Source of the DNA: a virus
Lineage: Duplodnaviria; Heunggongvirae; Uroviricota; Caudoviricetes
Virus record (IMG/VR): IMGVR_UViG_2617270976_000006
Strand: one strand, 5' to 3'
Length of the DNA stretch: 9,129 nt
Part shown: one piece after another, positions 1 through 9,129 of the stretch
Position numbering within the stretch: the first letter of the stretch is position 1
Layout of the letters: each line of letters begins with the position of its first letter
Program-made: the position numbers and the translations under genes
Notes under the pieces: model-generated
The model's database searches: none
What the model was told of the DNA's origin: nothing
What the model saw: the letters and a program-made list of their open reading frames with translations, nothing else

Positions 1-2333
1 CCCAGCTCAACGATTGTGCGTACATCGCGATCGTTGTAGTAACGCCACGGGCAGGGGATCCCCTGCCGTTCGTATGAACGGCGCAAAATCGTGTTGTCGA
101 AGTTGGCTCCATTTCCCCAGACCTGAACAAAAAATTCACCGGAGTTTTCGTCGATAAATTCCCGCAATTGTAACAGTGCATCATCTAACGGGATTTCATC
201 GGTCATAATGGCAGATTGCGCTTCGCGTGATTGCTTAAGCCACCATTTAATGGTGTCCCGATCAATGACTCCGCCAGCAGTTTCCAGATCGATAGTCTTA
301 CTAAATTCCGGTCCCATATCTCCGGTTTGCGGATCGAAAAATATTGCACCTATTGAGATGATCGGGGCATCAGGATTTTTTCCCATGGTTTCAAGGTCGA
401 TCATTAGATGGTCACACGTCCTGCTGGTGGATGTGATTTCGTGATGACCGTTCACCTTAATTGGGTGATCTGCCGTCTCGCCAGTTTCATTATCGCTATT
501 GTGATGCTGATTGCCGCCAGTGTTCTCCTTGTGTGGATGTTCAGCGCCTTCCATTTCCTCCGGATCATCTTCCTGAACTTCAACCTGATACTCTTCATCG
601 AATGTTTCTTGGTATGTTGCGTCGCCCATCACCGCGCCACAATCAGGGCAGTTGCCGCCGCCGGTCTGACCGCAGGCGGTGCAGACTTTTTCCACTTCCT
701 GTTGCGCTACTGGTTCAGGCTGTTTCGTTTCTGGCTCGTTTTGTAACGCATTTGGACTGTTTTGTTCCGCTTTTTGGTAGTTCCGTTCCGATTCATGCTG
801 GTTCTGGTTCACAGAATCGCGGGTCTGGAGCCCCTTAACCCATTTCGGATCATTCGGGTCACTAATCCCTTCAACAAATTCACCACGTGATGCAGCAAGC
901 AACTTATCGGCGTCAGGCTGGCTGATATTGGCTGCCTGCATAATTTTGTTTACTTCGTCAGCGGTAACTTTTATCGGCTCTGGTTGTTCTGAATCTTCAG
1001 CGGTATCTACATTTTGCGGTAAGCCCGTGTATGTGCCATTTTTTCGGGCAAAATATTCTTCTTTTGTGATTTCAGTGGCGCCAGCAGCCAGTGCCTTATC
1101 CAGACCAGAGAGTTTGTTTGCGCGACCGTATTTTTCTCCGTCCTTATCTGCGAAGAGGAAATAGAACGGCCCCTCACGCTCTACAGATGGTTCAGCTTCC
1201 GGCGCGGTTTCATTTTTTGGGATATCAGATACCTCAGTTTCCACTGCATCAGTTTGTGTTTCTGATGACTGGAGAACATCAACAGTGCCCAGGTCTGTTT
1301 CTTCATTCTCAAACACGCCCTTTGTCGTCAGGTATTCGCAGATATATTTGTTCAGTGCTACGGGATCTTTGTGAATGTCGATCGGACGCTCACGGACAAG
1401 GCCAAAAATAGTTTGGCGGTCGTAGCGAAGGGCATCAGGCTGTTTGCGCATTGATGCCGAGATACGCTTCCAGTCTTCGCGGTCGTTGTCGATAACTTCT
1501 TTTTTTGCCCAGCGATGGATGCTGCCGTCAATGTTTCCGGCATCCACATCACTAGGCCAGAGAGCGTAGGCCAGTTCGTCATCCAGTGTTTTCCATGTCT
1601 GCTTGTATTCGCGATGAATGGCAGCAATGACCGGGCTGATTTTTCCTGTTGAATTTTCAGTGTACTGTTGATTGGCTCTGGCGCGGGCGAGATCAACAAC
1701 AGACGTGTATTTTCCGGTTTCCTTGCGTTCACCTTCGCGACGTTTTTTCCAGATGCGCATCTCTGCCTGAATTTCGGGCCATTTAGCACCAGGAATACAT
1801 TTATGCTTAACCCACCCAATGGCGTGCAACTTAAGCTCCGGATACATGGCGTTAACTTCTGGCATTTTCATCAACGCTTCAACGATATGTCCGTCGAATG
1901 TTGCCATGTCTTCCTGCAACAATTCCTGTGCGCTAATAACCATATCAACGGTGATGTTTTCACATGTGTCGAACTTAACCATGACAGCGTTCTGTACTTC
2001 AGGGGCCAGCTTGTCAAAAGTGACGTTCATCGGATCGGATTCAGTCTCAACCGGGACAAAAGAAGCAGACTCCTCATCCCAGCGGTTTTCCTGCATATAT
2101 TCAGCATCCCATGAATCGAGGGCAGGGCGGGGTATGCCAGGTTTATCCTCGCAGACAATAAATTTATAAGCGCAGTCCTGAGCAGCCGGATAATGTTCCA
2201 GGAATTGCCAGTGAAATTTTGCTCGAGCACGGCGTTCGTCGCCAGCTTCAATGGCTGTGGCTACAGCCACAGCGCCTTCTTCCCTTGTTGCCAGTTCGTC
2301 AGGAATAGCGGCGCAAATAAAGACTTTACTCAT
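1..2333 (-). CDS. ydfE: Large early-operon prophage protein (YdfE-like) with C-terminal DEDDh-type 3'-5' exonuclease motifs; C-terminus lies beyond the window start (partial)
   Basis: Manual minus-strand translation from ATG at 2333..2331 (MSKVFICAAIPDELATREEG...) stays stop-free in one frame to position 3, at least 777 codons. GAGG Shine-Dalgarno lies 10 nt upstream. Absent from the ORF track only because it has no in-window stop. Near the window start it shows Exo I (HLMIDLETMG) and Exo II (GNGANFDNTIL) motifs; mid-protein has CTACGQTGGGNCPDCG and acidic low-complexity linkers. Name is by position after ydfD and recollection, not verified. Confidence 0.85.
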   Translation of the reverse strand, partial: MSKVFICAAIPDELATREEGAVAVATAIEAGDERRARAKFHWQFLEHYPAAQDCAYKFIVCEDKPGIPRPALDSWDAEYMQENRWDEESASFVPVETESDPMNVTFDKLAPEVQNAVMVKFDTCENITVDMVISAQELLQEDMATFDGHIVEALMKMPEVNAMYPELKLHAIGWVKHKCIPGAKWPEIQAEMRIWKKRREGERKETGKYTSVVDLARARANQQYTENSTGKISPVIAAIHREYKQTWKTLDDELAYALWPSDVDAGNIDGSIHRWAKKEVIDNDREDWKRISASMRKQPDALRYDRQTIFGLVRERPIDIHKDPVALNKYICEYLTTKGVFENEETDLGTVDVLQSSETQTDAVETEVSDIPKNETAPEAEPSVEREGPFYFLFADKDGEKYGRANKLSGLDKALAAGATEITKEEYFARKNGTYTGLPQNVDTAEDSEQPEPIKVTADEVNKIMQAANISQPDADKLLAASRGEFVEGISDPNDPKWVKGLQTRDSVNQNQHESERNYQKAEQNSPNALQNEPETKQPEPVAQQEVEKVCTACGQTGGGNCPDCGAVMGDATYQETFDEEYQVEVQEDDPEEMEGAEHPHKENTGGNQHHNSDNETGETADHPIKVNGHHEITSTSRTCDHLMIDLETMGKNPDAPIISIGAIFFDPQTGDMGPEFSKTIDLETAGGVIDRDTIKWWLKQSREAQSAIMTDEIPLDDALLQLREFIDENSGEFFVQVWGNGANFDNTILRRSYERQGIPCPWRYYNDRDVRTIVEL

Positions 2334-2425
2334 TTGTTTTAACCTCATGACAGATTTAAGGATGAACAAATCCCTGCCATTGCTGGCATATAAGAATGAA
2401 ACCGGATATTTATTACGGAACTGTT

Positions 2426-2617
2426 TTAAAGACCTGCCGGGATTTCGATATTATCCTGGTGAATAACTTTATCGACCGGGTAACAGTTACCGGGAATTTT
2501 CTGTTCGGTTGCTGCAGTCATACACTCCTGCATTGTCCTGTGAACACTGACTGCAATATCAACTGGCTCTCCGGAAACAAGAAAAACTGTCAGAACAAGC
2601 ACAAATGCTGAATTCAT
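2426..2617 (-). CDS. ydfD: YdfD, small prophage lysis protein with N-terminal hydrophobic segment (63 aa)
   Basis: Translation MNSAFVLVLTVFLVSGEPVDIAV...IEIPAGL matches remembered YdfD. Its ATG (2617..2615) overlaps the dicB stop TGA (2616..2614) as ATGA, suggesting translational coupling. The track ORF 2426..2671 is a longer in-frame ATG extension that I reject. Confidence 0.8.
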   Translation of the reverse strand: MNSAFVLVLTVFLVSGEPVDIAVSVHRTMQECMTAATEQKIPGNCYPVDKVIHQDNIEIPAGL

Positions 2618-2802
2618 TGTGCACATCCTTTTGGCATCAGACGTAAACGAGCCAGCATTGAAACAATGCATATTTTATTTAATAGCTCCCGTTCTTGTTT
2701 TCTCTTGTTAATGGCATCTTCAGTAAATACTGGGTTACTGATAGTGACACCAATTTCAAAACAACCTTCAGACGTATTAACGTTTGGTAATAACGTTTTC
2801 AT
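2614..2802 (-). CDS. dicB: DicB, cell-division inhibitor (62 aa)
   Basis: Translation MKTLLPNVNTSEGCFEIGVTISNPVFTEDAINKRKQERELLNKICIVSMLARLRLMPKGCAQ. GAGGA Shine-Dalgarno 6-7 nt upstream of the ATG at 2802. The track ORF 2614..2961 contains it as the C-terminal 62 codons. Confidence 0.9.
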   Translation of the reverse strand: MKTLLPNVNTSEGCFEIGVTISNPVFTEDAINKRKQERELLNKICIVSMLARLRLMPKGCAQ

Positions 2803-2932
2803 TATCGCGTCCTCAACAATGAATTTTGTGATGCAGTGCCTGGTGCCTCCAGGTGACGTTAACCAGTTAACAATTAACGCCGGATAGCGGAACTGTTTGC
2901 TGAGAACACCGTGCGGTGTGTTGATGCAAACA

Positions 2933-2961
2933 AGATTAGCCATGACTAACATATCGGTCAA
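2933..2961 (-). promoter_or_regulatory. Candidate dicB operon promoter (PL analogue): -35 TTGACC (2961..2956), 17-nt spacer, -10 TAATCT (2938..2933)
   Basis: Read directly on the minus strand. Sits just downstream of the dicA stop and upstream of dicB, with an operator-like palindrome in the spacer. The -10 is only 3/6 to consensus. Confidence 0.4.
2936..2949. promoter_or_regulatory. Operator-like palindrome O3, TTAGCCATGACTAA (TTAG-N6-CTAA), overlapping the dicB promoter spacer and -10
   Basis: Same half-site architecture as the two palindromes in the dicA-dicC intergenic region; 12/14 identical to the reverse complement of O2. Confidence 0.45.
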
Positions 2962-3000
2962 GTGATTTTGTATGCTATAGCTAACATAATTGATGTGGTA

Positions 3001-3035
3001 AAAGATAACTCATTGATGATGTTATCTTTTATTTG
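3001..3035. terminator. Hairpin at the dicA 3' end: AAAGATAAC / GTTATCTTT arms (9 bp), 11-nt loop, T-rich flank on the plus strand
   Basis: Perfect 9-bp inverted repeat at 3001..3009 and 3021..3029, enclosing the dicA stop codon. The AU-rich stem makes it a weak terminator; it could instead be a protein-binding site. Confidence 0.3.
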
Positions 3036-3429
3036 TCCGCTGACGGGCTTTTAGTAATTCTTCAAAGAGTTTATTGAAGTTTTTTACTCGAGCTCGCATT
3101 TCGGCGAGCTGGGTATCCTGTTCTGATTCTGGCAGTGCATTAAACAGCTCAAGGAGCTCTAGTTCTTTGGGGGATAAGGCAACTGGCTTCTCAACAGGTG
3201 GTGTTGGTTGCTTGTCTTCATCGCCAAATAGAATCCATGTTGGTGAGCATTGCAATACTTTGCTGAGGGCAAAAAGGTTCTTCCCTGTAGGTTCACTATC
3301 ACCCCGTTCCCATTGTGATACAGACACATGGGAGATTTTCAGGGCTTTAGCAAGAGACCTTTGGGTGTGTTTGAGGTTTTTCCGACGATACCTGATGCGT
3401 TCGCCGATAGTTAAATTTTTTGTTTCCAT
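3022..3429 (-). CDS. dicA: DicA, cI/C2-like HTH repressor of the dicB operon (135 aa)
   Basis: Track ORF translation METKNLTIGERIRYRRKNLKHTQRSLAKALKISHVSVSQWERG... matches remembered DicA. Divergent from dicC. No clear Shine-Dalgarno upstream. Confidence 0.95.
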   Translation of the reverse strand: METKNLTIGERIRYRRKNLKHTQRSLAKALKISHVSVSQWERGDSEPTGKNLFALSKVLQCSPTWILFGDEDKQPTPPVEKPVALSPKELELLELFNALPESEQDTQLAEMRARVKNFNKLFEELLKARQRTNKR

Positions 3430-3431
3430 AG

Positions 3432-3445
3432 TTAGCTAATGCTAA
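3432..3445. promoter_or_regulatory. Operator-like palindrome O1, TTAGCTAATGCTAA, immediately upstream of the dicA start
   Basis: TTAG-N6-CTAA inverted repeat in the dicA-dicC intergenic region. Confidence 0.45.
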
Positions 3446-3451
3446 ATCGTA

Positions 3452-3480
3452 TTGACTATGTTTTTGTTAACATCTATCTT
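3452..3480 (+). promoter_or_regulatory. dicC promoter (PR analogue): -35 TTGACT (3452..3457), 17-nt spacer, -10 TATCTT (3475..3480)
   Basis: Sigma70-like hexamers with ideal spacing, about 33 nt upstream of the dicC ATG. AAGGTG Shine-Dalgarno at 3501..3506. Confidence 0.55.
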
Positions 3481-3498
3481 GTTAGTTATGACTAACAA
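3479..3498. promoter_or_regulatory. Operator-like palindrome O2, TTGTTAGTTATGACTAACAA (7-bp arms), overlapping the dicC -10 and start site
   Basis: Perfect 7-bp inverted arms around a 6-bp spacer; core TTAG-N6-CTAA shared with O1 and O3. Confidence 0.5.
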
Positions 3499-3512
3499 TA
3501 AAGGTGTTTTAA

Positions 3513-3743
3513 ATGCTTAAAACTGACGCTCTTTTGTATTTCGGTTCAAAAACAAAACTTGCACAAGCAGCAGGTATTCGTTTGGCTTCGCTTTATAGCT
3601 GGAAAGGGGATTTAGTTCCCGAAGGTCGCGCGATGCGTCTACAGGAGGCATCTGGCGGGGAGCTTCAGTATGATCCCAAAGTTTATGATGAATATCGTAA
3701 GACGAAGCGGGCGGGGCGGTTGAACAATGAAAATCACTCCTGA
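3513..3743 (+). CDS. dicC: DicC, Cro-like regulator (76 aa)
   Basis: Track ORF translation MLKTDALLYFGSKTKLAQAAGIRLASLYSWKGDLVPEGRAMRLQEASGGELQYDPKVYDEYRKTKRAGRLNNENHS matches remembered DicC. Confidence 0.95.
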   Translation: MLKTDALLYFGSKTKLAQAAGIRLASLYSWKGDLVPEGRAMRLQEASGGELQYDPKVYDEYRKTKRAGRLNNENHS

Positions 3744-4038
3744 ACAGGCTCGTGAGGCTCTGGATGCCTGGATATGTCGACCAGGAATGACACAGGAGCA
3801 GGCGACGATATTAATCACTGAAGCATTCTGGGCTTTGAAAGAGCGCCCGAACATCGATGTTCAGCGTGTCACATATGAAGGTGGCGCGATTGATCAGCGA
3901 GCGCTTGGCGTTAATCGAGTGAAGATATTTGAACGCTGGAAGGCTATCGACACCAGGGATAAGCGTGAAAAGTTCACGGCGCTAGTGCCTGCAATTATGG
4001 AGGCTATCAGAAATGATACAAAGATAATATGTCTTTAA
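3727..4038 (+). CDS. Hypothetical prophage protein downstream of dicC, in the positional slot of ydfX (103 aa)
   Basis: Track ORF overlapping the dicC 3' end by 17 nt; weak ribosome-binding site; no domain recognised. An internal Met at codon 21 (3787) is an alternative start. Confidence 0.55.
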   Translation: MKITPEQAREALDAWICRPGMTQEQATILITEAFWALKERPNIDVQRVTYEGGAIDQRALGVNRVKIFERWKAIDTRDKREKFTALVPAIMEAIRNDTKIICL

Positions 4039-4092: not shown

Positions 4093-4425
4093 TTAGACGT
4101 AAATATCAATGGTGCCAGCGGTATTTGTATCGTCTTTTTTCTCTTCTTTTTTATCAGGCTGAACTGTCGCGTCTTCATTCTTTTTCTCTGCCTGCTGCCT
4201 TAACAACTGCTCCAGTTGAGCCCAGAGGCTTTCAATTTGCTTCTGTACCAATGCAGCCATTTCTTTTTTCTGCTGTGTCGTCATCCCCTCTTCCGATGAG
4301 ATTTTCCCAAGCTTTTCAGTCAGCACCTGAATTTGTCTTGTGATTTTGGCTATTTCTGATGTTCCTTCCGGGGCGGAGTTGTTTGAAATAACGGTTGAGG
4401 TATTTCCCTGAATTGTGACAGACAT
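4093..4425 (-). CDS. flxA: FlxA, FliA-regulated protein (110 aa)
   Basis: Track ORF translation MSVTIQGNTSTVISNNSAPEGTSEIAKITRQIQVLTEKLGK... matches remembered FlxA. AAGGAG Shine-Dalgarno 7 nt upstream. Confidence 0.95.
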   Translation of the reverse strand: MSVTIQGNTSTVISNNSAPEGTSEIAKITRQIQVLTEKLGKISSEEGMTTQQKKEMAALVQKQIESLWAQLEQLLRQQAEKKNEDATVQPDKKEEKKDDTNTAGTIDIYV

Positions 4426-4627: not shown

Positions 4628-4933
4628 TTATCGACAGGTCAGGTCACCGCTCACCCGCCGACGAGAAAGCAACACTGACATGCTAAAGCAAAAAATAGAT
4701 GAATAAGTTGAGTTGTGCATATGTAGCCTGACCGTCACAAAGTATATGGTGTCTGTACCAGTAAGATGATGGCCGGACTCTTTAAAAACGAGCTGACCTG
4801 CACAATACAGGATGGACTTAGCAATGGCTGCTCCTGGCACAAAGCGGACAGTGATCACCGTTCTTACGACTACTTTCTGACTTCCTTCGTGACTTGCCCT
4901 AAGCATGTTGTAGTGCGATACTTGTAATGACAT
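4628..4933 (-). CDS. ydfV: ydfV-position ORF (101 aa), doubtful as a real protein
   Basis: Track ORF of the length I recall for ydfV. It has no Shine-Dalgarno, and its start codon lies inside the relBE operator and promoter. Confidence 0.3.
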   Translation of the reverse strand: MSLQVSHYNMLRASHEGSQKVVVRTVITVRFVPGAAIAKSILYCAGQLVFKESGHHLTGTDTIYFVTVRLHMHNSTYSSIFCFSMSVLLSRRRVSGDLTCR

Positions 4934-4957: not shown

Positions 4958-5197
4958 ATGGGTAGCATTAACCTGCGTATTGACGATGAACTTAAAGCGC
5001 GTTCTTACGCCGCGCTTGAAAAAATGGGTGTAACTCCTTCTGAAGCGCTTCGTCTCATGCTCGAGTATATCGCTGACAATGAACGCTTGCCGTTCAAACA
5101 GACACTCCTGAGTGATGAAGATGCTGAACTTGTGGAGATAGTGAAAGAACGGCTTCGTAATCCTAAGCCAGTACGTGTGACGCTGGATGAACTCTGA
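4958..5197 (+). CDS. relB: RelB antitoxin (79 aa)
   Basis: Translation MGSINLRIDDELKARSYAALEKMGVTPSEALRLMLEYIADNERLPFKQTLLSDEDAELVEIVKERLRNPKPVRVTLDEL. Its TGA stop overlaps the relE ATG. Confidence 0.97.
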   Translation: MGSINLRIDDELKARSYAALEKMGVTPSEALRLMLEYIADNERLPFKQTLLSDEDAELVEIVKERLRNPKPVRVTLDEL

Positions 5198-5484
5198 TGG
5201 CGTATTTTCTGGATTTTGACGAGCGGGCACTAAAGGAATGGCGAAAGCTGGGCTCGACGGTACGTGAACAGTTGAAAAAGAAGCTGGTTGAAGTACTTGA
5301 GTCACCCCGGATTGAAGCAAACAAGCTCCGTGGTATGCCTGATTGTTACAAGATTAAGCTCCGGTCTTCAGGCTATCGCCTTGTATACCAGGTTATAGAC
5401 GAGAAAGTTGTCGTTTTCGTGATTTCTGTTGGGAAAAGAGAACGCTCGGAAGTATATAGCGAGGCGGTCAAACGCATTCTCTGA
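5197..5484 (+). CDS. relE: RelE toxin, ribosome-dependent mRNA endonuclease (95 aa)
   Basis: Translation MAYFLDFDERALKEWRKLGSTVREQLKKKLVEVLESPRIEANKLRGMPDCYKIKLRSSGYRLVYQVIDEKVVVFVISVGKRERSEVYSEAVKRIL. Confidence 0.97.
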   Translation: MAYFLDFDERALKEWRKLGSTVREQLKKKLVEVLESPRIEANKLRGMPDCYKIKLRSSGYRLVYQVIDEKVVVFVISVGKRERSEVYSEAVKRIL

Positions 5485-5555
5485 ACCAAAGCATGACATC
5501 TCTGTCTCGCACCGAAGGTGACACTTCTGCTTTGCGTTGACAGGAGAAGCAGGCT

Positions 5556-5711
5556 ATGAAGCAGCAAAAGGCGATGTTAATCGCCCTGATCGTCATCTGT
5601 TTAACCGTCATAGTGACGGCACTGGTAACGAGGAAAGACCTCTGCGAGGTACGAATCCGAACCGGCCAGACGGAGGTCGCTGTCTTCACAGCTTACGAAC
5701 CTGAGGAGTAA
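5556..5711 (+). CDS. hokD: HokD (RelF), Hok-family small membrane toxin (51 aa)
   Basis: Manual translation MKQQKAMLIALIVICLTVIVTALVTRKDLCEVRIRTGQTEVAVFTAYEPEE. AGGAG Shine-Dalgarno 9 nt upstream. Too short for the ORF track. Confidence 0.9.
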   Translation: MKQQKAMLIALIVICLTVIVTALVTRKDLCEVRIRTGQTEVAVFTAYEPEE

Positions 5712-5779
5712 GAGACCCGGCGGGGGAGAAATCCCTCGCCACCTCTGATGTGGCAGGCATCCTCAACGCACCCGCACTT

Positions 5780-5810
5780 AACCCGCTTCGGCGGGTTTTT
5801 GTTTTTATTT
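5780..5810 (+). terminator. Intrinsic terminator of the relBE-hokD operon: 7-bp stem AACCCGC/GCGGGTT with UUCG tetraloop, then TTTTGTTTTTATTTT
   Basis: Hairpin and U-tract read directly, about 70 nt after the hokD stop. Confidence 0.8.
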
Positions 5811-5927
5811 TCAACGCGTTTGAAGTTCTGGACGGTGCCGGAATAGAATCAAAAATACTTAAGTAGCGCGCAGGGATAAGAGGGATGGTCCCTTAAAGGG
5901 GAGAGCTAATTATCCGGAAGGATTCTG

Positions 5928-6179
5928 ATGATGAACATCGAAGAACTGCGTAAAATTTTTTGTGAAGATGGCCTCTATGCTGTGTGCGTTGAAAATGGAA
6001 ATCTTGTTAGTCATTACCGCATTATGTGTTTGCGAAAGAATGGGGCTGCGTTAATTAATTTTGTGGATGCTCGGGTCACGGACGGATTTATCTTGCGCGA
6101 AGGTGAGTTTGTCACTTCATTACAGGCATTGAAAGAGATCGGAATAAAAGCTGGCTTTTCTGCTTTTTCAGGAGAATAA
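5928..6179 (+). CDS. rem: Rem, small prophage protein of unknown function (83 aa)
   Basis: Track ORF translation MMNIEELRKIFCEDGLYAVCVENGNLVSHYRIMCLRKNGAALINFVDARVTDGFILREGEFVTSLQALKEIGIKAGFSAFSGE. GGAAGGA ribosome-binding site 5 nt upstream. A possible promoter (TTGAAG, 18 nt, TAGAAT) lies at 5820..5849. Confidence 0.85.
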   Translation: MMNIEELRKIFCEDGLYAVCVENGNLVSHYRIMCLRKNGAALINFVDARVTDGFILREGEFVTSLQALKEIGIKAGFSAFSGE

Positions 6180-6245
6180 ACTCATCTACAATCTTGCGCG
6201 GGGCTGAACTCCCGCTGAGTAACACCGTGCCACCGGAGAAAACCG

Positions 6246-6524
6246 ATGGCACGCAACGCAAAATATTACAATTCTGATAATTCGCCCGTTCTTGCCTGCA
6301 CGCACGGGCGGTATTCTCACGCATTCAAGTCTGAATGGTTCCAGCACCCTCCATGCACTGCAGAACAGGCCGAATGGCTGATTCATTCTTACCGCAGGCG
6401 CGGGTTCGAGGTTAAGAAAGCTCTCAGTCTCGACTATCGGCACTGGATAATCTCTGTCAGGCTGCCTTATTCCGAACGCCCACCACGTGCGTCCCGCACT
6501 TTCCAGCAACGGATCTGGAGGTAA
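6246..6524 (+). CDS. Hypothetical basic protein (92 aa), immediately upstream of and probably coupled to ydfU
   Basis: Track ORF with GGAG ribosome-binding site 6 nt upstream. Its TAA stop (6522..6524) lies inside the GGAGGT Shine-Dalgarno of the ydfU GTG start (6526). No family recognised. Confidence 0.5.
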   Translation: MARNAKYYNSDNSPVLACTHGRYSHAFKSEWFQHPPCTAEQAEWLIHSYRRRGFEVKKALSLDYRHWIISVRLPYSERPPRASRTFQQRIWR

Positions 6525-6525
6525 C

Positions 6526-7575
6526 GTGCGGGTATTACTTAGACCTGTTCTGGTGCCTGAGCTTGGGCTGGTGGTCCTTAAGCCGGGCCGTGAATCCATA
6601 CAGATATTTCATAATCCTCGAGTGCTGGTGGAACTGGAACCAGAAAGCATGCGTAATCTGCCATCCGGAGTCGTTCCTGCCGTTCGCCAGCCGCTGGCGG
6701 AAGACAAAACATTGCTGCCGTTTTTTAGTAACGAACGGGTGATTCGTGCTGCTGGCGGCGTTGGCGCATTGTCCGACTGGCTATTACGTCATGTTACATC
6801 CTGCCAGTGGCCTAATGGCGATTACCATCACACTGAAACAGTCATTCACCGTTATGGTACCGGCGCAATGGTGTTGTGCTGGCACTGCGACAACCAACTG
6901 CGTGACCAGACATCGGAATCACTGGAGCTGCTTGCTCAACAAAATCTGACAGCATGGGTGATTGACGTCATCCGTCACGCAATAAGCGGTACGCAGGAGC
7001 GGGAATTATCTTTGGCTGAATTATCCTGGTGGGCGGTCTGCAATCAGGTGGTGGATGCACTACCTGAGGCTGTATCGCGTCGTTCGCTGGGATTACCAGC
7101 GGAAAAAATCTGCTCGGTGTACCGCGAAAGCGACATCGTACCGGGAGAGCAGACCGCCACCAGCATATTGAAACAACGCACAAAAAATCTTGCACCGTTG
7201 CCTTACGCCCACCAGCAACAAAAATCACCACAGGAAAAGACGGTGGTAAGCATCACCGTTGATCCAGAGTCTCCGGAATCTTTCATGAAGCTGCCTAAAC
7301 GTCGCCGCTGGGTTAAGGAGAAATACACACGTTGGGTTAAGACACAGCCGTGTGCTTGCTGCGGTATGCCAGCCGACGATCCGCATCATCTGATTGGTCA
7401 CGGGCAGGGCGGAATGGGAACAAAAGCACATGATCTCTTTGTGTTGCCTTTGTGCAGAAAGCATCACAACGAGCTGCATACGGATACAGTGGCATTTGAA
7501 GATAAGTATGGCTCCCAACTGGAGCTGATATTTCGTTTTATCGATCGCGCGCTGGCAATTGGCGTACTGGCGTAA
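6526..7575 (+). CDS. ydfU: YdfU, DUF968-type prophage protein with C-terminal Cys/His HNH-like motif (349 aa from the GTG start)
   Basis: Long track ORF 6487..7575. I prefer the GTG at 6526, which has a strong GGAGGT Shine-Dalgarno 4-5 nt upstream and gives the 349-aa length I recall. C-terminus reads PCACCGMPADDPHHLIGHGQGGMGTKAHDLFVLPLCRKHHNELH. Confidence 0.8.
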   Translation: MRVLLRPVLVPELGLVVLKPGRESIQIFHNPRVLVELEPESMRNLPSGVVPAVRQPLAEDKTLLPFFSNERVIRAAGGVGALSDWLLRHVTSCQWPNGDYHHTETVIHRYGTGAMVLCWHCDNQLRDQTSESLELLAQQNLTAWVIDVIRHAISGTQERELSLAELSWWAVCNQVVDALPEAVSRRSLGLPAEKICSVYRESDIVPGEQTATSILKQRTKNLAPLPYAHQQQKSPQEKTVVSITVDPESPESFMKLPKRRRWVKEKYTRWVKTQPCACCGMPADDPHHLIGHGQGGMGTKAHDLFVLPLCRKHHNELHTDTVAFEDKYGSQLELIFRFIDRALAIGVLA

Positions 7576-7588
7576 GTGGAGAACGAGC

Positions 7589-8341
7589 ATGAACCTTGAA
7601 GCCTTACCAAAATATTACTCCCCAAAATCTCCAAAATTGAGCGATGACGCTCCAGCGACAGGCACCGGTTGTTTAACAATTACGGATGTAATGGCAGCGC
7701 AGGGGATGGTGCAGTCGAAAGCACCACTTGGGTTGGCCTTATTTCTGGCAAAAGTTGGTGTTCAGGACCCTCAGTTTGCGATTGAAGGCCTGCTAAATTA
7801 CGCGATGGCACTGGATAACCCGACATTGAACAAATTGAGTGAAGAAATCCGGTTACAGATTATTCCTTACCTCGTGAGTTTTGCCTTTGCTGATTACTCC
7901 AGGTCTGCGGCAAGTAAGGCTCGCTGTGAGCATTGTTCAGGTACGGGATTTTATAATGTATTGCGCGAAGTGGTGAAACACTACAGACGCGGGGAATCTG
8001 TAATCAAGGAAGAATGGGTGAAGGAACTATGTCAGCATTGCCATGGTAAGGGCGAAGCCAGCACAGCGTGCAGAGGGTGTAAGGGTAAAGGGATTGTTCT
8101 GGATGAAAAAAGAACCCGGTTTCATGGCGTACCGGTATATAAGATTTGTGGGCGTTGTAATGGAAACCGGTTTAGTCGTTTACCGACCACGCTGGCACGA
8201 CGTCATGTCCAGAAGCTGGTACCAGACCTGACCGATTATCAGTGGTATAAGGGGTATGCGGACGTCATTGGTAAACTGGTAACAAAGTGCTGGCAGGAAG
8301 AAGCATACGCGGAAGCGCAATTGAGGAAGGTGACGAGATAA
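7589..8341 (+). CDS. quuQ: QuuQ, Q-like late-gene antiterminator (250 aa) with multiple CxxC zinc-binding motifs
   Basis: Translation MNLEALPKYYSPKSPKLSDDAPATGTG...AQLRKVTR. GGAG Shine-Dalgarno before the ATG at 7589. The track start at 7559 would overlap ydfU. Motifs CEHCSGTG, CQHCHGKG, CRGCKGKG and CGRCNG are present. Confidence 0.9.
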   Translation: MNLEALPKYYSPKSPKLSDDAPATGTGCLTITDVMAAQGMVQSKAPLGLALFLAKVGVQDPQFAIEGLLNYAMALDNPTLNKLSEEIRLQIIPYLVSFAFADYSRSAASKARCEHCSGTGFYNVLREVVKHYRRGESVIKEEWVKELCQHCHGKGEASTACRGCKGKGIVLDEKRTRFHGVPVYKICGRCNGNRFSRLPTTLARRHVQKLVPDLTDYQWYKGYADVIGKLVTKCWQEEAYAEAQLRKVTR

Positions 8342-8477: not shown

Positions 8478-8615
8478 AAATGGGGCAATGGTAATGTTGA
8501 ATCTCATCCCGGGACTCATGTCTGTTAACTTATTATTTAGCTGGTGACTTGGTTATTTGCCTGATGTTTAAAATGTTTTCTTCCAGTACAATGTCCCTAA
8601 ACACAATGAGTCTGC

Positions 8616-8638
8616 GGTAATGACTCCAACTTATTGAT
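8616..8638. repeat. IS1 terminal inverted repeat (insB-proximal end)
   Basis: GGTAATGACTCCAACTTATTGAT at the junction with prophage DNA. Confidence 0.85.
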
Positions 8639-9008
8639 AGTGTTTTATGTTCAGATAATGCCCGATGACTTTGTCATGCAGCTCCACCGATTTTGAGAAC
8701 GACAGCGACTTCCGTCCCAGCCGTGCCAGGTGCTGCCTCAGATTCAGGTTATGCCGCTCAATTCGCTGCGTATATCGCTTGCTGATTACGTGCAGCTTTC
8801 CCTTCAGGCGGGATTCATACAGCGGCCAGCCATCCGTCATCCATATCACCACGTCAAAGGGTGACAGCAGGCTCATAAGACGCCCCAGCGTCGCCATAGT
8901 GCGTTCACCGAATACGTGCGCAACAACCGTCTTCCGGAGACTGTCATACGCGTAAAACAGCCAGCGCTGGCGCGATTTAGCCCCGACATAGCCCCACTGT
9001 TCGTCCAT
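8631..9008 (-). CDS. insB: IS1 transposase InsB frame (normally expressed as an InsAB' frameshift fusion); ATG-delimited part shown
   Basis: Track ORF translation [125 protein letters not shown]. Confidence 0.9.
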
Positions 9009-9052
9009 TTCCGCGCAGACGATGACGTCACTGCCCGGCTGTATGCGCGAGG

Positions 9053-9127
9053 TTACCGACTGCGGCCTGAGTTTTTTAAGTGACGTAAAATCGTGTTGAG
9101 GCCAACGCCCATAATGCGGGCTGTTGC
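9053..9127 (-). CDS. insA: IS1 InsA, 3' fragment (N-terminus beyond the window end)
   Basis: Manual minus-strand translation [24 protein letters not shown] then stop at 9055..9053, matching the InsA C-terminus. Confidence 0.85.
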
Positions 9128-9129
9128 CC

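Follow-up and report, generated by a model that had tools for sequence, protein, structure and literature searches.

A 92-codon open reading frame (ORF) between rem and ydfU is best explained as a genuine gene of the nin region that is translationally coupled to ydfU, starts within a covarying RNA hairpin, and has C-rich RNA through which Rho may silence ydfU in E. coli K-12. We give this account, taken as a whole, a probability of roughly 60%. The window analyzed is a 9,129-nt stretch of Caudoviricetes DNA (IMG/VR record IMGVR_UViG_2617270976_000006), and positions refer to it unless another record is named. In this account, the ORF is a gene of the nin (replication-to-Q) region in Qin-like lambdoid prophages. 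Most short forms of its family begin over the stop codon of a preceding gene, DUF1367 (Orf/NinB-like). Qin-like phages would have replaced the DUF1367 gene by hokD/rem, and in them the ORF has its own Shine-Dalgarno (SD) sequence and ATG, which may be how its N-terminal extension arose. Ribosomes that complete the ORF would then free the ydfU start and begin again on it. Translation of the ORF is probably poor in uninduced K-12, and its C-rich RNA would then give Rho an entry site and keep ydfU and ydfT silent.

A conserved small gene between rem and ydfU

The ORF occupies 6246..6524 on the plus strand, from ATG 6246-6248 to TAA 6522-6524, and encodes a 92-aa product with the N-terminus MARNAKYY. 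An SD sequence read from the DNA, GGAG at 6235..6238 (plus strand), lies 7 nt 5′ of the ATG; it is kept as GGAG in 71/89 loci and is GCAGAG or a shifted GGAG in the rest. These signals support an SD and start codon belonging to the ORF itself, as the preliminary description had held. That description had extended the feature to 6528, which is the last base of the ydfU start codon. From codon 1 to the conserved core, the ORF contains no in-frame ATG, GTG, or TTG. Prophages lacking rem resemble the window from position 6229 on, shortly before the SD. No intrinsic terminator was found between rem and the ORF, the sole terminator-like site being at 5780-5797, after hokD. Rfam was negative both for the window at the gathering score and, with E relaxed to 1, for 6100-6650.

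Purifying selection and intactness in relatives, the two marks of a protein-coding frame, are both found in the ORF. An intact 92-codon frame with its ATG is present in 89 of 92 related loci. The dN/dS in this frame is 0.22 overall, 0.10 in the core (codons 27-92), and 0.81 in the N-terminal extension. The antisense frame that shares the third codon positions of the ORF has a dN/dS of 0.31, and the remaining four frames exceed 1. One of the four holds an antisense 137-aa ORF at 6186-6599, which was rejected as a shadow ORF (dN/dS 1.56); the other three reach at most 1.54. Protein homologues in other genera are 35-50% identical, so the amino-acid sequence has been kept there although the DNA has diverged and another gene may follow. 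Judged by these comparisons, the ORF is not a chance reading frame but a true, conserved gene that encodes a protein, and the protein-level conservation in related prophages called for by the preliminary description is present.

The ORF is already known as a hypothetical protein in sequence databases. PGAP annotates it as WP_012304870.1 in K-12 derivatives and in thousands of E. coli genomes, UniProt names its product ‘Prophage protein’, and PHROGs also holds the family. In the MG1655 record NC_000913.3, no feature separates ydfU (start 1644304) from rem (1644651), in line with the preliminary description, which placed no named K-12 gene there. An identical 92-aa ORF nevertheless lies unannotated in that record at 1644306-1644584 on the minus strand. 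The view that the protein had been overlooked holds for the hand-curated MG1655 record but not for RefSeq/PGAP, UniProt, or PHROGs. Only the reference annotation of E. coli K-12 lacks the ORF, so this is a curation gap and not a discovery. No paper mentioning WP_012304870 or ‘Orf QD1’, the name of a family member, was found in the literature. One phage record labels the ORF ‘toxin to Rem’, an unexplained automated label.

Probable coupling to ydfU

The gene ydfU (6526..7575, plus strand) has a GTG start and encodes a 349-aa protein resembling DUF968 / His-Me-finger (HNH-type) nucleases. YdfU matches PF06147 with an E-value of 1.4e-76 and 256.8 bits (cut-off 27.8), also matches phrog_96 (‘HNH endonuclease’), and is classed in His-Me group 7. 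Its translation carries the HNH-type Cys/His motif CACCG...DPHHLIGHG...LCRKHHNELH, which together with the PF06147 score places it in the DUF968 / His-Me finger nucleases.

The start of ydfU is closely tied to the end of the ORF. The junction reads CTGGAGG-TAA-C-GTG, and the ydfU SD, GGAGG at 6517..6521 on the plus strand, is formed by the last two sense codons of the ORF, TGG AGG (Trp-Arg). The stop codon had been placed within a GGAGGT element two bases before the GTG. It does adjoin GGAGG but shares only the T, and the GTG at 6526-6528, although adjacent, is separated from the stop by the single base C6525. The spacing between SD and GTG is only 4 nt. This GTG is in frame with the longer ORF 6487..7575, for which the previously given 38-nt overlap with the small ORF is right. 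The codon at 6487 is GTG, not the ATG that had been reported. A ydfU start at GTG 6487 is ruled out by the absence of this codon in 58/89 relatives, and the same number of loci (58/89) lack any in-frame ATG, GTG, or TTG upstream of GTG 6526. On this comparison GTG 6526 is the only conserved ydfU start, agreeing both with the reference annotation (349 aa) and with the earlier proposal of a GTG start. The two points on which the proposal of a small coupled gene hung, conservation of the protein in related prophages and a ydfU start other than 6487, thus fell in its favor as far as sequence can tell.

The gap between the ORF and ydfU is 1 nt in 89/89 long-form loci. Across the family, the distance from stop to next start is -4 to +2 nt in 186/190 loci, and 1-2 nt in 179/190, whatever gene comes next. 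Family genes end in TGG AGG or TGG GGG plus the stop codon, these Trp-Arg/Gly codons forming the downstream SD, and after 1-2 nt comes an ATG or GTG. Textbook cases of coupling in RNA phages and E. coli operons hide the downstream start by base-pairing it to the last part of the preceding ORF. The ORF-ydfU pair has the geometry of such cases, with a stop 1 nt from the start, the SD inside the upstream ORF, a weak GTG, and a predicted hairpin in which SD and start codon are paired to coding sequence 5′ of them. Unlike the textbook pairs, its hairpin lacks covariation, and the coupling is predicted from sequence.

In this junction hairpin (6493..6532, plus strand), the final ORF codons pair with the SD (CUGGAGG) and start (GUGCGGG) of ydfU. 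It has a predicted energy of -19.3 kcal/mol (z -2.9; 1/200 shuffles folds as well) and is kept in 13/13 sequence variants at -12.4 to -19.3 kcal/mol. Changes in its stem are mostly C-to-U opposite G, and no double compensatory change occurs. Only wobble-compatible changes occur and the variants are 95% identical in this region, so that the junction hairpin shows no true covariation, and its conservation could stem entirely from the overlapping constraints of the protein, the SD, and ydfU. A 131-nt fold around the junction is as stable as shuffled sequences (z 0.03). Since the end of the ORF supplies the ydfU SD and, with the first ydfU codons, this hairpin, ribosomes finishing the ORF would be needed to expose the ydfU start. 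Close stop-start spacing is common throughout this operon and therefore carries little weight for a functional partnership between the two products.

Family, fold, and relatives

The ORF product belongs to PHROG 1212, whose members include homologues of 66-69 aa in temperate phages across Enterobacterales. It matches the phrog_1212 profile with an E-value of 1.7e-35 and 121.9 bits, and its residues 27-92 align with profile positions 1-66 of 66, a full-length match to the profile. A family profile search gave 528 matches, and clustering at 50% identity gave 103 clusters; a scan of genome contigs with the single ORF protein reached close relatives only. Residues 27-92 form a conserved β-α-β-β core followed by a basic C-terminal tail, PRPSRxxQQxxW. 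Residues 1-26 are a poorly conserved, predicted-disordered, clade-specific extension. In the AF2 model, the core has a pLDDT of about 90 and residues 1-23 fall below 50. The protein is thus small and basic, with a predicted α/β fold.

Members of phrog_1212 include Gifsy-2 STM1021.1n, mEp237 gp51, phiES15 gp17, PY54 ORF47, and N15 ‘Orf QD1’. They are homologous to the ORF product over residues 27-92 at 35-48% identity, and K28, H34, C37, T38, Y49, G53, D63, W67, L73, P74, R81, and W91 are invariant among them. Most also lie in the nin region with 1-2 nt to the next gene, exceptions being PY54 ORF47 (48-nt gap) and the N15-type copies. Unlike the ORF, they are 57-69 aa long, and most of their starts overlap the stop of the DUF1367 gene. 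The ORF differs in its 24-26 aa N-terminal extension and in having its own SD and ATG inside a hairpin. The next gene is DUF968 for the ORF, whereas it is YbcO, NinG, or RusA for the listed members.

Searches for more distant relatives were largely negative. The ORF had no match in Pfam, NCBIfam, or PADLOC. A Pfam search of all 29 alignment members, with E allowed up to 5, brought out nothing but a faint Glyoxalase signal; at 9/29 members and a best E of 0.041, it was too weak, and the relationship was dropped. Sequence searches of the PDB with the single protein and the profile returned nothing meaningful, and the ORF product also lacks an informative fold match. By hhalign, the family profile is unrelated to lambda NinB, NinD, NinE, NinF, NinG, NinH, and Ren, and to Rem, YdfU, and DUF1367. 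The small lambda proteins NinD, NinE, NinF, and NinH (56-68 aa, in overlapping or abutting frames) resemble the ORF in size and in operon slot, which runs from an Orf/NinB-type gene through a small gene to a NinG/RusA-type nuclease. In sequence they differ, with hhalign probabilities of 0.1-0.4% and no match of the ORF to Pfam NinE, NinF, or NinH, and the ORF is not a member of the lambda Nin small-protein families. Apparent domain fusions among the database matches (P0176, P0193, P0204, P0209, and P0247) look like frameshift or chimeric calls into the neighboring gene. The idea that the N-terminal extension derives from 3′-terminal DUF1367 sequence was also discarded, there being no DNA or protein similarity.

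Gene neighborhood and possible roles of the protein

The gene upstream of the family is DUF1367 in 91 loci, Rem in 70, and HokD in 13, and RdgC is also seen. Downstream, the long form (90-92 aa) is followed by DUF968 in all 82 complete cases. The short form precedes YbcO (60 loci), a NinG-like gene (16 by length, of which about 15 are true NinG), RusA (12), or else a methyltransferase (Dcm) or small unknown ORFs. The expected synteny with DUF968 thus stands for the long form only. The commonest genes after the family, YbcO, YdfU, and NinG, are phage recombination-associated HNH-type nucleases; YbcO (DUF1364) and YdfU (DUF968) belong to His-Me finger group 7 and NinG/Rap to group 24. They are neighbors and not relatives of the small protein, with which they share no similarity.

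This context makes the protein a candidate nucleic-acid-binding accessory of a phage recombination and nuclease block, in which an Orf-like protein would be followed by the small protein and then by YbcO, DUF968, NinG, or RusA. The assignment is tentative and is the weakest step of the preferred account. The more specific suggestion that the ORF product partners the DUF968 protein YdfU is weakly supported: it draws on position, the short form precedes other genes, and the tight junction is not specific to DUF968.

An independent accessory (‘moron’-type) product, acting in host takeover, exclusion, or anti-defence and unrelated to the neighboring nucleases, is an unlikely alternative that draws on the same variability. 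The downstream gene changes among DUF968, YbcO, NinG, RusA, the Dcm methylase, and small unknown ORFs, as does the upstream gene among DUF1367, RdgC, Rem, and HokD. To our knowledge, many small nin-region genes of lambdoid phages also have no known link to their neighbors. However, PADLOC returned nothing, and in most loci the gene keeps its slot directly before the recombination nuclease(s), with the short form directly after DUF1367.

Another conceivable role is that of an antitoxin-like inhibitor made first, and in excess through coupling, to restrain the downstream HNH-type nuclease. The order of the genes, their tight coupling, the 82/82 association with DUF968, and the ‘toxin to Rem’ label would all fit, as would the description of the whole class of prophage genes behind the Rho terminator ahead of ydfU as toxic (PMC9160355). 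Yet the family also precedes non-homologous enzymes (RusA and Dcm), so that the fixed partner gene of an antitoxin or immunity protein is missing, and no known antitoxin or DNA-binding family was matched in Pfam or NCBIfam, nor any family in PADLOC. The clade-specific extension evolves almost neutrally, unlike a binding interface, and toxicity of YdfU is not documented in the literature examined. We regard an inhibitor as very unlikely.

Translation start and proposed Rho-dependent silencing

A second hairpin, at 6226..6253 on the plus strand, is predicted over the translation start of the ORF from folding energy and covariation. Its stem pairs CGUGCCA with UGGCACG and includes an inner CGG/CCG; part of the SD is in the loop, and the AUG falls within the 3′ arm. 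The predicted energy is -16.4 kcal/mol (z -5.2), and none of 200 shuffles folds as well. Among 11 distinct variants, both sides have changed in 6/10 pairs and 93.6% of cells remain paired. None of 500 shuffles reaches the covariation score, and slid controls pair at 14-40%. Some of the compensatory changes alter ORF codons 2-3. Both start-site hairpins are, as predicted structures, first described here.

A hairpin of this design would suit an RNA-binding autoregulator, in which the protein binds its own start hairpin and sets the output of ORF-ydfU-ydfT, in the manner of a phage coat protein and its operator. Covariation, the placement of SD and AUG, and a small basic α/β protein agree with this. 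The hairpin is limited to the long-form clade, however, while the protein core is family-wide, and family and fold searches gave no RNA-binding match; autoregulation of this kind is highly improbable.

The ORF also coincides with a change in base composition. A C-over-G stretch at 6180..6540 on the plus strand, defined by GC skew, spans the ORF and is a candidate zone of Rho loading and termination. The skew toward C is confined to 6180-6540, where GC skew is -0.05 to -0.28 versus +0.27 to +0.36 in rem, and the ORF is the only C-rich stretch in the region upstream of ydfU. A terminator ‘upstream of ydfU’ has been ranked among the strongest Rho-dependent ones (PMC9160355). Both rho/nusG mutations and bicyclomycin increase ydfU expression (values 1.4-2.8) but do not change that of rem (PMC9160355 supplement).

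A strong Rho terminator inside or close to the ORF is also what one could see if K-12 did not translate the frame at all. Taken further, the peptide itself might be functionless, and the frame would matter either as a leader whose translation frees the ydfU start or as untranslated Rho-loading RNA. The junction hairpin and SD inside the ORF, the terminator, and the C-rich composition are all compatible with that, and N-terminomics supplements contain no match for ydfU, the ORF coordinate, or an ORF peptide. A functionless peptide is nonetheless scarcely credible given the strong purifying selection on the core, the retention of the protein across genera with diverged DNA and a different downstream gene, and the confidently predicted compact fold.

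A speculative and quite unlikely extension of the preferred account is that the ORF acts as the sensor of a translation-gated Rho attenuator, with the start hairpin setting how often the ORF is translated. Ribosomes translating the ORF would shield its C-rich RNA from Rho and open the ydfU start, and transcription would reach ydfT, which encodes the Q-type antiterminator. Without translation of the ORF, Rho would terminate transcription and the late genes would stay silent.

Significance

None of these findings overturns current understanding. For E. coli K-12, a conserved and constrained 92-aa gene at 1644306-1644584(-) could be added to the reference. For phage biology, PHROG 1212 represents a widespread, uncharacterized small protein, apparently unstudied, that mostly stands directly before lambdoid recombination nucleases. 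The combination of a covarying start hairpin with a strong Rho terminator ahead of ydfU and a Q-like antiterminator offers a testable idea for how late genes of cryptic prophages are silenced. If the attenuator were real, Qin-like prophages would gain a second, translation-based checkpoint before Q.

Coding status and annotation

The 92-aa reading frame between rem and ydfU is a real, conserved gene in a coupled arrangement with ydfU, as the preliminary description had proposed: it is intact, with 92 codons and an ATG, in 89/92 related loci, and its pooled dN/dS is 0.22. Translation starts at ATG 6246, 7 nt past a GGAG Shine-Dalgarno (SD) sequence (6235-6238), and stops at TAA 6522-6524; position 6528, first taken as the end of the ORF, is the last base of the ydfU start codon. 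Selection was profiled on 45 distinct 279-nt alleles, pooled per frame or segment. Within the ORF, dN/dS is 0.10 for codons 27-92 and 0.81 for codons 2-26. The antisense frame that shares third codon positions with the ORF gives 0.31, and the other three frames give 1.18 to 1.54. An antisense ORF of 137 aa (6186-6599, minus strand), which covers the whole of the sense ORF and exceeds it in length, was rejected as a shadow ORF (dN/dS 1.56).

The curated MG1655 record (NC_000913.3) is indeed blank between ydfU (start 1644304) and rem (1644651), where the same 92-aa ORF lies at 1644306-1644584 on the minus strand. The protein is absent from that one record but present in databases, and was not overlooked in general. 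The NCBI pipeline PGAP lists it in a K-12 derivative as hypothetical protein WP_012304870.1 and calls homologues in EHEC prophages, all of which stop 2 nt short of a DUF968 gene. At least 1000 contigs carry an identical protein, named "hypothetical protein" or "Prophage protein" (UniProt A0A094VVT9). Thus, the ORF is not a new gene, and the ydfU GTG start is likewise already annotated, since YdfU in NC_000913.3 has the corresponding 349 aa. The present analysis adds the selection profile, family-wide synteny, dual-use terminal codons, two start-site hairpins (one covarying) and the coincidence with a Rho terminator. Two phage submissions (ON470583.1 and ON470612.1) give the homologous ORF the label "toxin to Rem"; no source or supporting evidence was found for this label.

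Protein family and predicted fold

The protein matches PHROG phrog_1212 (E 1.7e-35) and has homologues with 35-48% identity in Gifsy-2, SPN3UB, mEp237, phiES15, PY54 and N15-like phages, as well as in phages of Klebsiella, Edwardsiella, Hafnia, Erwinia and Pantoea. A profile search retrieved 528 family proteins, and HMMER run exhaustively against 1.84 billion representatives gave 103 family clusters. Members are nearly all stand-alone, unnamed proteins of 57-70 aa, with the consensus MKxxWFxHxxCTxEQAExLxxxYRxRGxxxxKxLSxDxxxWxVSVxLPESxxxPRPSRxxQQxIW(G/R). The family has no match in Pfam, NCBIfam, PADLOC or, by sequence, the PDB, and no relationship to lambda NinB, NinD, NinE, NinF, NinG, NinH or Ren, nor to Rem, YdfU or DUF1367.

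An AlphaFold2 model built from a 29-sequence alignment predicts a core (pLDDT ~90) of strand 29-33, helix 39-52, strand 55-60 and strand 67-74, a C-terminal helix (84-91) at lower confidence, and disordered N-terminal residues 1-23 (pLDDT <50). The 24-26 aa N-terminal extension that distinguishes the long form (90-92 aa) from the short form (66-69 aa) is restricted to the Escherichia Qin-like clade. From codon 1 to the conserved core there is no further in-frame ATG, GTG or TTG; therefore, the core is made only if the extension is translated.

The ORF-ydfU junction

The junction reads CTGGAGG-TAA-C-GTG, with the ydfU GTG at 6526. The last two sense codons of the ORF, TGG AGG, therefore form GGAGG ahead of this start. 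The stop codon had been placed within a GGAGGT SD, with which it shares a single base and no more. Across genera, most members end in TGG AGG or TGG GGG and so supply the downstream SD; this double use partly accounts for the invariance of W91. Among 190 family loci, 88 have a gap of 1 nt from stop to next start, 91 one of 2 nt, 7 one of -1 or -4 nt, and only 2 a larger one. In the long-form clade, ydfU always starts with GTG 1 nt past the stop, and 58/89 loci lack any other in-frame start codon upstream, which supports the proposed GTG start. The codon at 6487, suggested as an alternative ATG start for ydfU, is itself GTG.

A hairpin at 6493-6532 (CCCGCAC-UUUCCAG-loop-CUGGAGG-UAAC-GUGCGGG) joins the 3' end of the ORF to the SD and start codon of ydfU. 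It is predicted to fold at -19.3 kcal/mol (z -2.9; 1/200 shuffles as stable); a larger fold of 131 nt does not stand out (z 0.03). It is kept in 13/13 sequence variants, with stem changes chiefly C to U opposite G; because the region is 95% identical, it yields no covariation evidence. This layout is consistent with classic coupling by unmasking, in which ydfU translation would depend on that of the ORF.

A covarying hairpin at the ORF start

The ORF start sits in a second hairpin (6226-6253; predicted -16.4 kcal/mol, z -5.2; 0/200 shuffles as stable), with the SD partly in the loop and the AUG in the 3' arm. Other long-form alleles carry alternative stems in the same register: GCGCCA/UGGCGC, GCGUCA/UGACGC (codon 2 Ala to Thr), GCGCCAUUG/CAAUGGCGC, and GUACCAUUAC/GUAGUGGUGC with a GUG start. 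Some compensatory changes alter codons 2-3. In an 11-variant alignment, 6/10 pairs are changed on both sides and 93.6% of cells are paired, against just 14-40% in slid controls; the covariation score was reached by 0/500 column shuffles. The U-G pairs occur in the sense orientation and therefore favour an RNA-level (or single-stranded) role. The constraint on this structure partly explains why the first codons evolve near-neutrally at the protein level. The hairpin, which has no Rfam match, occurs in the Escherichia long-form clade only; short-form genes rely on coupling to DUF1367 for their start.

Prophage context and Rho-dependent termination

The window, a Qin-type cryptic prophage from E. 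coli, carries dicA (3022-3429, minus strand), dicC (3513-3743), flxA (4093-4425, minus), ydfV (4628-4933, minus), relB (4958-5197), relE (5197-5484), hokD (5556-5711), rem (5928-6179), the ORF (6246-6524), ydfU (6526-7575) and ydfT, a Q-type antiterminator gene (7589-8341). It is not K-12 and differs from MG1655 within 1567-4009. About 1 kb with ydfA, ydfB, ydfC and dicF (K-12 locus 8492-9525) is missing, which explains why Rfam finds no DicF match in the window; about 0.5 kb with ydfW (6828-7354 of that locus) is likewise missing. From 8615 on, the window no longer resembles MG1655 or E. coli C. In this last stretch (8615-9129), a 125-aa ORF (8631-9008, minus) is a putative IS1 InsB-type transposase fragment.

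The sole intrinsic-terminator-like hairpin within 5400-6800 (5780-5797; 7-bp GC-rich stem and T run) lies 69 nt past hokD and precedes a promoter-like site (5820-5849) that is upstream of rem. A sigma-70-like match (6165-6192; TTTTCA, 16 nt, TACAAT; 9/12) at the end of rem, some 50 nt short of the ORF, could, as a consensus match only, be a weak promoter of the ORF-ydfU-ydfT unit.

In a published survey, the terminator upstream of ydfU ranks with the strongest Rho-dependent ones in E. coli; its supplementary fold-change values in rho/nusG mutants and with bicyclomycin are 1.4-2.8 for ydfU, and those for rem are -0.52 to 0.54 (PMC9160355). Between G-rich rem and ydfU, C exceeds G only in the ORF region (6180-6540). 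This region coincides with the published interval "upstream of ydfU" and is a candidate termination zone. Plausibly, Rho would load on the ORF RNA when the ORF is poorly translated, which would silence ydfU and the antiterminator gene. By the same token, expression of the ORF in uninduced K-12 may be weak; neither ribosome-profiling nor proteomic evidence for or against its expression was found.

Neighborhood and the DUF968 partner

Family members and their neighbors were located in 190 loci, with representatives checked by Pfam. The long form precedes DUF968 in 82/82 complete cases. The short form precedes YbcO (PF07102; 60 loci), a NinG-like protein of 193-213 aa (16 loci; one, in PhiR46_1, annotated as an exonuclease), RusA (12 loci), a 139-aa Cys-rich protein (3 loci) and, in single cases, Dcm methylase or small unknown ORFs. 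The Cys-rich protein occupies the usual YbcO/NinG/RusA slot on three viral contigs (L131:2710-3126, L127 and L143) and has no Pfam match. Upstream lie DUF1367, an Orf/NinB-like family (91 loci, its stop overlapping the short-form ATG), Rem (70 loci), HokD (13 loci) or RdgC (1 locus, PY54). Independent Pfam-labelled neighborhoods read DinI, DUF1367, family gene, YbcO or NinG, RusA, YlcG and Q. DUF968 and YbcO (DUF1364) form one His-Me-finger nuclease group and NinG another (PMC5714182), and in DUF968 proteins an Orf-like domain is reported to be fused with an HNH motif (PMC4118853).

The earlier proposal that the protein partners the DUF968/HNH-like YdfU thus finds positional support only, as the short form precedes other genes. 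From the neighborhood, our best guess, a doubtful one, is that the protein assists the recombination and nuclease block by binding nucleic acid. That the long form is strictly paired with DUF968 may just reflect one module inherited together; the constant trait of the family is its slot in the nin-region recombination and nuclease block, not a tie to DUF968.
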